DNA of 42,933 nucleotides from Candidatus Chisholmbacteria bacterium. GTDB lineage: Bacteria; Patescibacteriota; Microgenomatia; UBA1400; JACOWY01. Every line of letters begins with the position of its first letter. Positions within the stretch are counted from its first letter, which is position 1. Shown here one piece after another: positions 9,079 through 11,201 of this stretch. The stretch covers positions 1 through 42,933 of the forward strand of contig JACOWY010000005.1 in NCBI GenBank assembly GCA_016176555.1, given 5' to 3'. Made by a program: the position numbers and the translations under genes. The notes under the pieces were generated by a model that was given only the letters and a program-made list of their open reading frames with translations, was not told where the DNA came from and did no database searches.

Positions 9079-9843
9079 CTAATCTTCTAGTCGTTCAACC
9101 GACAAAACATCTCCTGTTTTGACTTGGAATTTCTCCACCGCCGAACCAAGGCGTTGGGCAACCTCCAAAGTTTGATGACTTCCTTCATAAATTAGTAGCT
9201 CCCCTGGACCAACATCTTCAAAAGTTTTGCAAAATGGTATAACCGCTTCAAAAACTGAACTTCCAACTAATACCCTATCTCCCGCACTAAAATTTGTCGC
9301 TTCTGAGCTTAATTTAATATTCCCATAGGGATCAACGTGTACCACTTGGTAGGGAGAAAACTCCAGTGGAATAATTTCCGTTGTCTCCAGTGGCACGCAA
9401 AATTCTTCCAGCCTCACTCCTCGCGTTAATAACCCTGCTGCCCGAGCAAAAACATCTCTGCCATGGAAAGTGTTTGATCTAATCGGAGCAATCCTGTCTT
9501 CTTCTAGTCGATAGGCTTGAATAATGCCATCGTCTCTCGCCGCCGGGTACAACAACCCATTATTCGGTCCAATAAACCAGTGATTTCTTGATCGAATTAA
9601 TAATCCAGACCTTTCCGAACCGACTCCAGGATCCACCACTCCTAAGTGTATTGACCCAGGTGGAGCCAATCTATAAACCTTAGACAGTACAAACGCCCCT
9701 TCAATAACTGAAAACGGGGAAACCGTATTTGAAACGTTAACAATCCGCGCTTCTCCGTTTAAGGCAGCAATAACTAGCTCTAGCTGTGCTAAAGCAAAGG
9801 CATCACCGAAATCAGTTGTGACCGTTATTACTTCTTTAGGCAT
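9079..9843 (-). CDS. DUF62 family SAM hydrolase (SAM hydroxide adenosyltransferase; chlorinase/fluorinase superfamily)
   Basis: TTDFG, VVDPGVGSER, GPNNG, TFHGRDVF and VDPYGN motifs; the Asp-Arg-His residues typical of the hydrolase branch are present. Confidence 0.9.
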   Translation of the reverse strand: MPKEVITVTTDFGDAFALAQLELVIAALNGEARIVNVSNTVSPFSVIEGAFVLSKVYRLAPPGSIHLGVVDPGVGSERSGLLIRSRNHWFIGPNNGLLYPAARDDGIIQAYRLEEDRIAPIRSNTFHGRDVFARAAGLLTRGVRLEEFCVPLETTEIIPLEFSPYQVVHVDPYGNIKLSSEATNFSAGDRVLVGSSVFEAVIPFCKTFEDVGPGELLIYEGSHQTLEVAQRLGSAVEKFQVKTGDVLSVERLED

Positions 9844-9868
9844 AAAAAACCTCCTGGGAAAGGAGGTT
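9844..9868 (-). terminator. Attenuator terminator that also sequesters the DUF62 Shine-Dalgarno
   Basis: Minus strand AACCTCCT-TTCCC-AGGAGG-TTTTTT-ATG. Confidence 0.8.
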
Positions 9869-9893
9869 AACTTTTGATCTTAAAATTTTAACT

Positions 9894-9980
9894 TTAAATC
9901 TCTTCCACTACCTCCTCTCGCCCATAATTTAATGCGCTCATCATCATTTCCATCATGGCGGAACGAGGCTGAATAATCAT
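9894..9980 (-). CDS. Met-rich leader peptide MIIQPRSAMMEMMMSALNYGREEVVEEI (28 aa)
   Basis: Hand translation; five AUG codons among codons 9-14; lies between a -10 box and a terminator upstream of two Met-related genes. Confidence 0.8.
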   Translation of the reverse strand: MIIQPRSAMMEMMMSALNYGREEVVEEI

Positions 9981-9986
9981 AGGGCT

Positions 9987-9995
9987 ATTATAACA
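9987..9995 (-). promoter_or_regulatory. Extended -10 promoter for a leaderless leader-peptide transcript
   Basis: TGtTATAAT ending 6 nt before the leader ATG. Confidence 0.7.
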
Positions 9996-10036
9996 CAACC
10001 TTACACAAGCTTTACTACCAAACACACTCTTTGTAT

Positions 10037-10405
10037 CTATCCTTTACCCACCATTGACTTAAACAAGTTGGCAATCTTATGTGACCACTTTTCCGCCCAG
10101 ACTTCTGCCTTCACTTTGCGCAATGCCGCTTGTATCCCTGGGTTTCCCATTTGCTCCTGCACCGTGGCCACCGTCGCCGAAGATACTTTCAAAGTTTCTT
10201 TGATATTTTCATACGATCTCCCTTTATCGAGAAACGCCACAATTGCCAGTTTTTTCGCCAAAGCGATGTGTTGCGTCTCGCCCAAAAGGTCTTTCAAAAT
10301 CAACCCCACCTCATCCGGATCTGTCGCATCCGCCAACATTTGGTGTAGCACCCAAAAAAGCTGTTTTTCAATATGCAGATTCAGTCTTCGCGTCGAAGCT
10401 TGCAT
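10037..10405 (-). CDS. TrpR/YerC-YecD-like helix-turn-helix protein
   Basis: DLL.ETQ.IALAKKLAI..FL.KGRSY.NI.ETLKVSSATVA matches the Trp-repressor-like HTH pattern. Confidence 0.8.
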   Translation of the reverse strand: MQASTRRLNLHIEKQLFWVLHQMLADATDPDEVGLILKDLLGETQHIALAKKLAIVAFLDKGRSYENIKETLKVSSATVATVQEQMGNPGIQAALRKVKAEVWAEKWSHKIANLFKSMVGKG

Positions 10406-10441
10406 GGGAAAATGACACTTTAATTAATTAAAGTAAAGCCT

Positions 10442-10462
10442 CTCCGACCTACTAGGTCGGAG
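10442..10462. promoter_or_regulatory. Perfect palindrome upstream of the TrpR-like gene (possible operator or small repeat)
   Basis: CTCCGACCT-act-AGGTCGGAG. Confidence 0.4.
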
Positions 10463-10563
10463 CCTCTTTAAGTTTACAGACTGAAACTACGTACCGAAAG
10501 CCCCAAAACAAAACTCCTCAAGTACCAACCCGTATCACGGGCTTTCTGGTACCGTAGTCCACC

Positions 10564-10896
10564 TTAGCGGCTCTGAAAATAAAAATCAATTGCTACCGTC
10601 AAAGCCAACAAGAGTGCCACGTTCACCACATTCCCGAGCCGCACCAACCGCAAGATTAAAATTACCGTCAAAACCAAAGCGTAGAGAAGCCCTCGCCGAC
10701 TGTTGTTTAAAACTAGTGTGATTAAAAAAAACCAGGCTAAAAAAAAGACCCCAAAAAAAGGCACATAAACCCCAGCCCAAATAAAATCTCTCACCACTAA
10801 GGGATCAACCTGCCACAGCAAAAACCCCAAGCCCCCGAAACTCAGACAGGTTAACACCAAAAGGGGCAACGTCGTTTTTTTCTCTCGTCTCCTCAT
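10564..10896 (-). CDS. Small four-TM membrane protein
   Basis: ORF track 10564..10911, ATG at 10896 preferred; four hydrophobic segments. Confidence 0.75.
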   Translation of the reverse strand: MRRREKKTTLPLLVLTCLSFGGLGFLLWQVDPLVVRDFIWAGVYVPFFGVFFLAWFFLITLVLNNSRRGLLYALVLTVILILRLVRLGNVVNVALLLALTVAIDFYFQSR

Positions 10897-10941
10897 CTTT
10901 CCAAGTATCAATTCTAGAAGCCAGGATGTTAAAATGCCAGC

Positions 10942-11061
10942 ATGGCCGAAACCGAACCCAAAGACACCGCTACTCGCATCAAAGAAATCGCTTGGACTGC
11001 CTTAAAAGCCCTTATCGCTGCTGTCGGCGCTCTTACTCTCGTCAACTGGTTCGCTCAATAA
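10942..11061 (+). CDS. Small membrane protein MAETEPKDTATRIKEIAWTALKALIAAVGALTLVNWFAQ (39 aa); below the ORF-track cutoff
   Basis: TGtTAAAAT 6 nt before ATG; codon style like other + strand genes; one C-terminal hydrophobic helix. Confidence 0.65.
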   Translation: MAETEPKDTATRIKEIAWTALKALIAAVGALTLVNWFAQ

Positions 11062-11086
11062 AATGAACCTATTTCAAAAGTCACAT

Positions 11087-11172
11087 TGTCATCCTGCCTG
11101 CCCGCCTCTGGAGGGAGCAGAGCGAAGGATCTCAACAGATTCTTCTCCCACCTTGGCGGGATCAGAATGACA
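11087..11172. repeat. GTCATCCTG...CAGAATGAC REP-like element with nested CCCGCC/GGCGGG palindromes
   Basis: Ends tgtcatcctg / cagaatgaca; internal agcgaaggatctc...gattcttc. Confidence 0.75.
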
Positions 11173-11201
11173 GTTTTGAAACTTATTCAATATCTTTACC
11201 T

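Follow-up and report, generated by a model that had tools for sequence, protein, structure and literature searches.

A candidate methionine-sensing leader-peptide attenuator before the S-adenosylmethionine hydrolase and metG genes of a Patescibacteriota bacterium

Here we describe a short leader on the minus strand of a 42,933-nucleotide stretch of DNA from an uncultured Candidatus Chisholmbacteria bacterium (hereafter the window; contig JACOWY010000005.1 of the metagenome-assembled genome GCA_016176555.1, order UBA1400 of the Patescibacteriota). The leader, between 9995 and 9844, lies directly before two genes, one for an S-adenosylmethionine (SAM) hydroxide adenosyltransferase of the DUF62 family, a SAM hydrolase, and the other metG, for methionyl-tRNA synthetase (MetRS). 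It contains a short open reading frame (ORF) with a run of Met codons, and we suggest that the element is probably a ribosome-mediated (leader-peptide) transcription attenuator that senses Met-tRNA(Met). We read or computed from the DNA the anatomy of the leader, the rarity of its Met run, its alternative helices with the switch between them under a masked ribosome, its recurrence in relatives, and the presence of sister leaders in the same genome. Its parts, and the two genes that follow, are listed here.

9987 to 9995, minus strand: extended -10 box TGtTATAAT, TGTTATAAT, read from the letters.
9894 to 9980, minus strand: leader ORF MIIQPRSAMMEMMMSALNYGREEVVEEI, 28 codons plus stop (TAA at 9896-9894), from the letters and the ORF list.
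9939 to 9956, minus strand: Met run ATG ATG GAA ATG ATG ATG, codons 9-14, the proposed sensor, from the letters.
9957 to 9973, minus strand: segment 1, UUCAGCCUCGUUCCGCC, partner of segment 2 in the free RNA, from computed pairs.
9904 to 9923, minus strand: segment 2, GGCGAGAGGAGGUAGUGGAA, with segment 1 or segment 3 as alternative partners (the latter the antiterminator), from computed pairs.
9876 to 9900, minus strand: small A/U-rich hairpin across the leader stop codon, present in both states, from folding.
9856 to 9868, minus strand: segment 3, AACCUCCUUUCCC, 5' arm of the terminator and partner of segment 2, from computed pairs.
9844 to 9855, minus strand: segment 4, AGGAGGUU, 3' arm of the terminator and at the same time the Shine-Dalgarno (SD) sequence of the next gene, then a T tract, from the letters and computed pairs.
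9079 to 9843, minus strand: SAM hydroxide adenosyltransferase (DUF62, SAM hydrolase), 254 aa, the first gene (Pfam PF01887, 4.5e-43; PF20257, 8.1e-17).
7630 to 9054, minus strand: metG, methionyl-tRNA synthetase, 474 aa, 24 nt past the DUF62 stop (Pfam PF09334, 4.5e-94).

Only the 6-nt spacer AGCCCT separates the extended -10 box (9995-9987) from the leader ATG at 9980, and transcription is predicted to start at or adjacent to the A of this ATG, which would make the mRNA leaderless. A simple promoter scan did not list the box because it has no good -35 hexamer. The Met codons of the ORF stand at positions 9, 10, 12, 13 and 14 (9956-9939). Further downstream, 9868-9848 form a terminator hairpin, AACCTCCT-TTCCC-AGGAGGTT, with 8 pairs (4 of them G-C) and a 5-nt loop, directly followed by T6 at 9849-9844 and by the ATG of the SAM hydrolase gene at 9843; the motif AGGAGG (9855-9850) in the 3' arm of this hairpin is the SD of that gene, 6 nt before its ATG. 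At the level of sequence the leader has the features of the attenuator class, namely a leader ORF, cognate codons, an intrinsic terminator, mutually exclusive helices and recurrence in relatives.

Three helices compete for the segments of this leader. Helix 1:2 joins 9973-9957 to 9922-9904 (duplex energy -17.4 kcal/mol), helix 2:3 joins 9919-9910 to 9867-9858 with an additional GG/CC across a bulge (-18.9 kcal/mol), and helix 3:4 has 8 bp (-12.0 kcal/mol as a duplex). The minimum free energy (MFE) fold of the free leader combines helix 1:2 with the terminator. When the RNA is masked up to the front of a ribosome standing on the Met codons, 9919-9910 of segment 2 take 9867-9858 of segment 3 as their partner and the terminator is lost. 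We followed the terminator by the mean pair probability of its stem, with the RNA masked up to the front edge of the ribosome. This value is 0.87 in free RNA, falls to 0.00 when the ribosome front is at any one of the five Met codons, and is 0.95 with the ribosome at the stop codon. Of 200 dinucleotide shuffles made of the upstream part, for which a free-RNA threshold of 0.8 was applied, only 3 gave this three-state switch. A preliminary description of the leader had reported the TGtTATAAT box, the 6-nt spacing and the 28-codon ORF at 9980-9894 with five Met in codons 9-14, all of which can be read in the letters; the core of the pairing it gave between segments 1 and 2, at 10 of 12 positions, is present in the helix 9973-9957/9922-9904, and the bulged 2:3 pairing and the 3:4 hairpin with its U tract and SD in segment 4 are those set out above. 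The attenuator logic that it drew from these pairings is reproduced by folding with the masked ribosome.

In the mechanism that we propose, the extended -10 promoter would set the 5' end of the RNA at, or adjacent to, the AUG that opens the 28-codon leaderless ORF. Segment 1 would pair with segment 2 in the free RNA, and a ribosome at the stop codon would either permit the same helix or have segment 2 behind or under it. With ample Met-tRNA the Met run would be cleared, the 3:4 terminator would form and bury the SD of the first gene, and expression of the operon would be low. When charged elongator tRNA-Met is scarce, the ribosome would stall in the AUG run at codons 9-14 and cover segment 1, leaving segment 2 free to pair with segment 3; helix 2:3 would then block the terminator/SD hairpin, and RNA polymerase would read into the SAM hydrolase gene, metG and probably the tatD gene behind them. 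The SAM hydrolase would yield Met and adenosine from SAM.

The gene content appears to fit this mechanism, as both regulated products would act on Met supply. In the host genome, which is 80% complete, metK is present, the search for MetE gave no match and matches to enzymes dependent on pyridoxal phosphate (PLP) are partial only; therefore SAM splitting and more MetRS would both ease a shortage of Met-tRNA. DUF62 is rare in the order, with matches in 4 of 61 genomes including this one, the other three being weak, and a metagenome scan with the DUF62 protein returned two distant loci only (L056 and L057, 30% identity).

The Met run is rare within its own genome. The assembly (G000; 1,000,486 bases, about 1 Mb, the sole member of its family among the genomes compared) contains a six-codon window with five ATG codons, on either strand and in any frame, at this leader only. 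Windows with four ATG codons of six occur at 13 other places, 12 of which lie inside or across other frames or ORFs of annotated size. The thirteenth (contig C54, minus strand, ~4397-4500) falls in a small Met-rich protein ending in ..YGMMRMMGMGRGV, which adjoins a Met/His-rich ORF (DUF305-like by eye) and heavy-metal ATPase-like genes (also by eye), and it looks like a copper-handling Met motif, not a leader.

Similar leaders precede metG elsewhere in the order. Among the 277 metG loci found in 286 genomes of the order, we examined the upstream regions of 91, and at five of these (G000, G048, G020, G036 and G023) there is a unit made of an extended -10 box (TGnTAnAAT), 6-9 nt, an ORF of 14-28 codons beginning with ATG (a small ORF, or sORF), a stretch rich in purines, and a hairpin followed by a U-rich tail. 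A sixth leader, in G063, came from an order-wide pattern search that required Met at codon 9. All five relatives have the TGnTAnAAT box at a spacing of 6-9 nt from the ATG. The six leader-bearing genomes span four families. Their leader peptides and, for the relatives, the terminator probability in free RNA, with the ribosome at the best Met codon and with the ribosome at the stop codon are as follows.

G000 (the window): MIIQPRSAMMEMMMSALNYGREEVVEEI, 5 internal Met.
G048: MNQTPQTTMEMSMMYHN, 4 internal Met; 0.99 free, 0.07 at the best Met, 0.99 at the stop; 1 of 200 shuffles switch.
G020: MRAKPSPLMCKVRI, 1 internal Met; 0.94 free, 0.01 at the best Met, 0.94 at the stop; 0 of 200 shuffles switch.
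G036: MTTPTPFPMALSMTPLA, 2 internal Met; 0.99 free, 0.02 at the best Met, 1.00 at the stop; 4 of 200 shuffles switch.
G063: MNLKTLAMMEMNAI, 3 internal Met; 0.77 free, 0.02 at the best Met, 1.00 at the stop; 0 of 200 shuffles switch.
G023: MTTKLLSTISMISPL, 1 internal Met; 1.00, 1.00 and 1.00; no switch.

A switch is therefore computed in five of the six leaders, and in all five helix 2:3 is stronger than the 3:4 hairpin despite the differing sequences of the segments. Met stands at codon 9 in five of the six, namely G000, G048, G036 and G020, where the search did not require it, and G063, where it did. The motif M-E-M is common to G000, G048 and G063, and the rest of the peptides is not conserved. 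A scan blind to Met, which looked only for an extended -10 box and an sORF, gave eight matches, four of them with a hairpin and U tract. These four hairpin-bearing leaders have 8 Met among 59 non-start codons, against a genome background of 1.58% (binomial P = 4e-6); the other four matches have 1 Met in 97 codons. An alignment of the leaders (A1, made with MAFFT) has a mean column identity of 58% and is poor 3' of the ORF.

The layout in G063 is that of the window, with a TrpR-like gene, the leader, a further gene and then metG, the further gene being one of the DUF2000 family in place of DUF62 (L224 1623-2039, plus strand; PF09391, 8.6e-35). Because this DUF2000 gene sits between a Met leader and metG, its position suggests a role for DUF2000 related to Met or Met-tRNA. 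The order-wide pattern search that found this leader gave about 210 matches, of which 150 were listed; 30 loci were inspected and 4 more were fetched. Most of the matches listed are the N-termini of true leaderless genes, including MnmA-like and GluRS-like starts as judged by the shown residues only, and the four fetched (G177, G110, G179 and G230) all proved to be long ORFs.

This recurrence bears on the view that the sORF regulates nothing, in which the hairpin would be the terminator of the TrpR-like or another upstream gene, the promoter box and ORF would be there by chance, and the ATG run would be a repeat accident. The hairpin does lie downstream of the TrpR-like gene, whose stop is at 10037, but some 170 nt beyond it. 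Likewise, ATGATG..ATGATGATG resembles a short (ATG)n repeat and could arise by slippage, yet the only five-of-six ATG window of the genome is the one that precedes a metG operon, and the Met enrichment given above extends to other leaders. Promoter, ATG, sORF and hairpin are found together upstream of metG operons in six genomes from four families, the sequence having diverged with the pairing kept, and the matches of a GTDB-wide search described below (94 stretches) include two further metG leaders and one leader of Met biosynthesis. We consider it very unlikely that the leader is without regulatory function.

The leaders of the relatives also speak to whether the element acts mainly on translation. 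The 3:4 helix would then hide the SD of the SAM hydrolase gene and stalling on AUG would open it, with termination minor or absent. The SD at 9855-9850 does lie in the 3' arm, 6 nt before the ATG at 9843, and a strong SD inside the hairpin looks purposeful because only 82 of the 727 long ORFs of this genome have an SD-like motif; the leaderless polycysteine sORFs of mycobacteria offer a precedent (bioRxiv 10.1101/834739). Against a purely translational device, T6 follows the hairpin directly, like a canonical intrinsic terminator, and the hairpins of G048, G020, G036, G023 and G063 have a U tract and lie ~24-45 nt (or one gene) before the next start, with the SD not inside. We judge a mainly translational attenuator to be unlikely, and the transcriptional and translational modes may act together in G000.

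Leaders of this type would depend on translation from an ATG at or near the 5' end, and gene starts of the leaderless type are common in the host genome. Of its 727 long ORFs, 121 have a TAnnnT hexamer 5-10 nt upstream of the first ATG, compared with 48 at a control offset, and the SD-like motifs counted above are confined to their 82 ORFs. Across the 286 genomes of the order, the ~210 matches to the promoter-ATG pattern compare with ~45 for the reversed control. In several relatives metG itself looks leaderless, for example in L006, where TGTTAAAAT is followed by 6 nt and the ATG.

We also scanned the host genome for sORFs with amino-acid runs before terminators and found two more leaders of the same build. 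One is a Phe-rich, leaderless-type leader, MKQFNHFTTFFYFFTNSKSRGVNRA, on the minus strand of contig C48 (L193), between rplT and pheS-pheT, with its ATG at 3562, a promoter TTGACA-17-TAAAAT and a terminator CTCCCCACCAAGGGGAG with T7 that ends at ~3434. An 85-aa ORF lies between this leader and pheS-pheT. The contig carries rplT at 3575-3931, pheS at 1418-3139 and pheT at 3-1421, within a cluster thrS-infC-rpmI-rplT-pheST, and the gap between rplT and pheST is also the site of the pheST attenuator in E. coli. By its build, the MKQFNHFTTFFYFFTNSKSRGVNRA element is a pheST-type attenuator in a Patescibacteria genome. The PheS protein encoded on this contig has an N-terminal region resembling the editing region of Ala/Thr-tRNA synthetases (PF01411, PF07973).

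The other is an aromatic-rich leader, MHQATFSFYYFWAHINAGRVVA, on the plus strand of contig C27 (L194 3040-3594), with a promoter TTGACT-17-TGTTAAAAT and a terminator CCCTCCTCGGAGGG with T7. It is followed by an 81-aa ORF without a Pfam family and then by a chorismate mutase gene (CM_2, 27.1 bits) truncated by the contig end. Its segment 2, GGGAGGGTAGTGG, resembles segment 2 of the Met leader, GAGGAGGTAGTGG. The computed antitermination windows fall on F/Y/W codons in both leaders, with terminator probabilities of 0.36-0.62 for pheST and of 0.00-0.03 for the aromatic leader, where the window is exactly YYFW. The Phe and aromatic leaders serve as positive controls from within the genome, of the method as well as of the biology. 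Two Trp-rich sequences considered as leaders, MNISVLAWWLWGQWCF (C50) and MLYFLWWMFFLR (C56), turned out to be inside a longer gene or at its end.

With these sister leaders in hand, a further explanation can be weighed, in which the Met-rich nascent peptide itself arrests the ribosome, perhaps with SAM or an antibiotic as ligand, in the manner of ermCL or TnaC. The shared M-E-M of G000, G048 and G063 would be expected of such a peptide. The peptides are otherwise unconserved, however (MIIQPRSA.., MNQTPQTT.., MRAKPSPL.., MTTPTPFP.., MNLKTLA..), and the sister leaders obey a cognate-codon rule. A strain contig of low depth argues in the same direction: it carries a 1-nt deletion at 9933, with which the peptide would end right after the Met run (..MMMSA, then stop). 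This deletion suggests that the C-terminal part of the leader peptide is not needed. Arrest by the peptide itself seems to us highly improbable. The strain data are Logan contigs, assembled from four DNA runs that all belong to a single groundwater study; the runs may include the source sample and so do not count as independent support. The contigs contain a single well-supported leader variant, at 9964, which changes the only bulge base that is unpaired in helix 1:2. Where contigs diverge upstream of 9980 or of 9974, they keep TATAAT 8 nt before the ATG.

The surroundings of the operon raise the possibility of a factor acting in trans, and two neighbouring genes belong to the description of the locus.

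6595 to 7596, minus strand: TatD-family gene after metG, possibly of the same operon (Pfam PF01026).
10037 to 10405, minus strand: TrpR-like (YerC/YecD-type) gene, the upstream neighbour, outside the attenuator (Pfam PF01371).

The order metG-tatD is also found in L080 and G048. In 47 of the 91 loci of the order, the gene immediately preceding metG, on the same strand, is a TrpR-like one, at a median gap of 54 nt; seven loci with longer gaps between the TrpR-like gene and metG were inspected and showed no further leader. The TrpR-like protein, another RNA-binding protein, a small molecule or an uncharged tRNA could in principle set the balance of helices 2:3 and 3:4, the sORF being incidental, and both this conserved neighbourhood and the control of Met genes elsewhere by T-boxes and SAM riboswitches would be in keeping with that. 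A search of 9000-11200 against Rfam, on both strands and with E up to 10, gave no T-box match and no SAM riboswitch match. Its best leader matches were below threshold (ohsC at 25.1 bits, cut-off 50; Phe_leader at 20 bits, cut-off 55, E 3.3), so that no family reached its gathering score, and the same search finds a SAM-II riboswitch at 67.5 bits in L105, a positive control. The leader is moreover too short for known aptamers and, at the column identity given above, too variable. Most loci with a TrpR-like gene before metG are without a leader, the leaders of family f7 have other upstream genes, and what the leaders conserve is the ORF frame, the place of Met and a stop codon beside segment 2. 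Control by a trans factor with an incidental sORF is in our view quite unlikely.

Several observations weigh against the Met-sensing attenuator that we favour. The Met run is strong in G000, G048 and G063 only, and the other three leaders have one or two internal Met codons. G023, with a single internal Met codon, shows no computed switch, the terminator probability being 1.00 throughout; the native free-RNA value of G063, 0.77, is just below the 0.8 used as a threshold for the shuffles; and in G048, Met 9 and Met 11 fall outside the computed window (0.90 and 0.89), with only Met 13 and Met 14 inside. In G000 the computed antitermination window is broad, covering codons 2-17, and the specificity for Met would therefore come from codon content alone. 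Segment 2 is purine-rich and segment 3 pyrimidine-rich, like an SD and an anti-SD, so that part of the pairing is due to composition. The plain MFE z-score is weak, at -1.74, and 10 of 200 shuffles fold as well. The folding model is one of equilibrium and takes no account of kinetics or of how RNA polymerase and ribosome are coupled.

The element is also rare, at 5 of 91 metG loci, and most loci have just a promoter next to the metG start. At the level of the class, a strict pattern (ATG-N21-ATG-N{120,150}-CCNTAYGTNAAYGC) matched in 0 of 401 genomes, in a sample without G048 and G020 and thus without a positive control; by design the pattern misses G036, G023, G000 and G063. In G020 a second promoter-like box, TGGTAAAAT (L013 ~1475-1500), lies between the leader terminator and the metG start and would, if active, give expression independent of the attenuator. 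Severe starvation could abolish translation of the leader and so cause termination instead, because the initiating formylmethionyl-tRNA (fMet-tRNA) is charged by the same enzyme, MetRS. Finally, we infer the transcription start, the leaderless translation, the stalling on AUG, the efficiency of termination and the physiological response. The preliminary description had looked to relatives for conservation of the poly-Met sORF and its stems, and there the outcome is positive, with limits: leaders stand before metG in five more genomes and five of six switch, but the run is strong in three of six, one leader does not switch and the unit is confined to few loci.

Beyond the order the picture is more diverse. 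A GTDB-wide pattern (TGTTAWAAT-N5-8-ATG-N18-24-ATG-N9-ATGATG) gave 94 stretches, about the number expected by chance, and downstream genes were inspected for 13 of them, chosen for Met-rich peptides; G048 was among the 13. On the minus strand of a Saccharibacteria contig (L080, 6331-6411), the sORF MIAILSVMTRRMMPMGA lies ~60 nt before metG-tatD. Among 24 metG loci of the Saccharibacteria type, three have a leaderless Met-containing sORF, L080 with MIAILSVMTRRMMPMGA, L195 with MTLNTYSRLVMMPLGAYMFFS and L200 with MQRYTLVTMCTMPPRA. All three share a conserved hairpin (AUGCCC-loop-GGGCAU) whose 5' arm consists of the last Met-Pro codons, AUG-CCC; the stop codon adjoins it, and a U-rich stretch comes after the hairpin. 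The build of the L080, L195 and L200 leaders differs from that in the window and no consistent switch could be derived for them, and they indicate only that Met-containing sORFs associate with metG. For the Saccharibacteria genome G286, no other member of its family was present among the genomes searched.

A Met-rich sORF, MKKEFKNMMAFMMMWRNSAEDVML, was found in Flavobacterium amnicola (NZ_SBKO01000001.1; L105 4298-4436, plus strand), followed by a canonical terminator CACCTCTGC-TTTT-GCAGAGG with T9. Downstream are two Cys_Met_Meta_PP genes, for Cys/Met PLP enzymes, and then a phosphoadenosine phosphosulfate (PAPS) reductase gene (cysH), and the locus is divergent from metK, which carries the SAM-II riboswitch of the positive control (4014-4074, 67.5 bits). 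The equilibrium switch of this leader is weak, with a minimum of 0.28. This Bacteroidota element may be a Met leader-peptide attenuator that controls Met biosynthesis.

Our observations can be set beside known attenuators of aminoacyl-tRNA synthetase genes. In E. coli pheST (with the leader pheM) and in Streptomyces trpS and leuS, a synthetase gene is preceded, as here, by a leader ORF with cognate codons, alternative hairpins and an intrinsic terminator. Here, in contrast, Met is sensed, the leader appears to be leaderless, the first gene is a SAM hydrolase and the host is of Patescibacteria type. A study of Actinobacteria describes classical attenuators before Streptomyces trpS and leuS and no RNA element for methionine in that group (PMC1262725). 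The attenuators of the trp, his, leu, thr, ilv and pheA operons follow the same 1:2, 2:3 and 3:4 logic, in which stalling of the ribosome at the regulatory codons masks segment 1 and its arrival at the stop codon promotes the terminator. These classical devices serve biosynthetic operons and have SD-led leader ORFs, whereas the putative device in the window serves a synthetase and a salvage enzyme and has a terminator arm that doubles as SD.

A further system for comparison is the mycobacterial polycysteine sORF Ms5788A, a leaderless sORF in which a cognate-codon run senses Cys and stalled ribosomes prevent an inhibitory fold (bioRxiv 10.1101/834739). The likeness lies in a leaderless sORF whose run of cognate codons would serve as sensor for the downstream operon. 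In the Ms5788A type, the amino acid is Cys, control acts on translation, with the SD occluded in a very stable duplex, and there is no intrinsic terminator, and its sequence has no relation to that of the present leader. The present leader would work in a similar way but does not belong to the polycysteine family, since its SD has segment 3 and not the Met run as partner, and the hairpin is followed by a U tract. Met T-boxes, the S-box and SAM-II serve the same purpose by other means, tying metG/metS and genes of Met transport and synthesis to Met-tRNA or SAM through premature termination. T-boxes and SAM riboswitches bind tRNA or SAM directly and without translation, and the leader in the window matches no such family.

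Leader-peptide attenuation has been described for Trp, His, Leu, Thr, Ile/Val and Phe and, of late, for Cys. The control of methionine genes has been ascribed to T-boxes, SAM riboswitches and MetJ-type repressors. The doubt raised in the preliminary description, whether a Met-codon attenuator had been characterized at all, is supported by our literature search: we found none in open-access papers and preprints, where an older account in a subscription journal could be missed. What is new here is probably the specificity for Met, the leaderless leader and the phylum; the class of mechanism is already known.

A Met attenuator is of conceptual interest in that AUG is also the start codon and that initiator and elongator tRNA are both charged by the enzyme that it would control. 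We entertain, tentatively and with more doubt than confidence, the broader proposal that attenuators control metG with the SAM hydrolase or DUF2000 gene, pheST and chorismate mutase in these bacteria, and that the Met attenuator is the first to be keyed to AUG and is a two-input device. If this were true, fMet-tRNA would be needed to start on the leaderless AUG and Met-tRNA(Met) to pass the run, both being charged by the enzyme under control. Mild shortage would then induce MetRS and release Met from SAM, and extreme shortage would lead to super-attenuation that shuts the operon.

The six natural variants, with 1 to 5 Met codons, are a ready series for asking how many regulatory codons such a leader needs. 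The finding points to leaderless translation in bacteria of the candidate phyla radiation, and it would link the DUF62 SAM hydrolase to the rescue of Met in organisms with minimal biosynthesis. If the mechanism proposed here is true, it would rank among the first concrete mechanisms of cis-regulation to be put forward for these bacteria.

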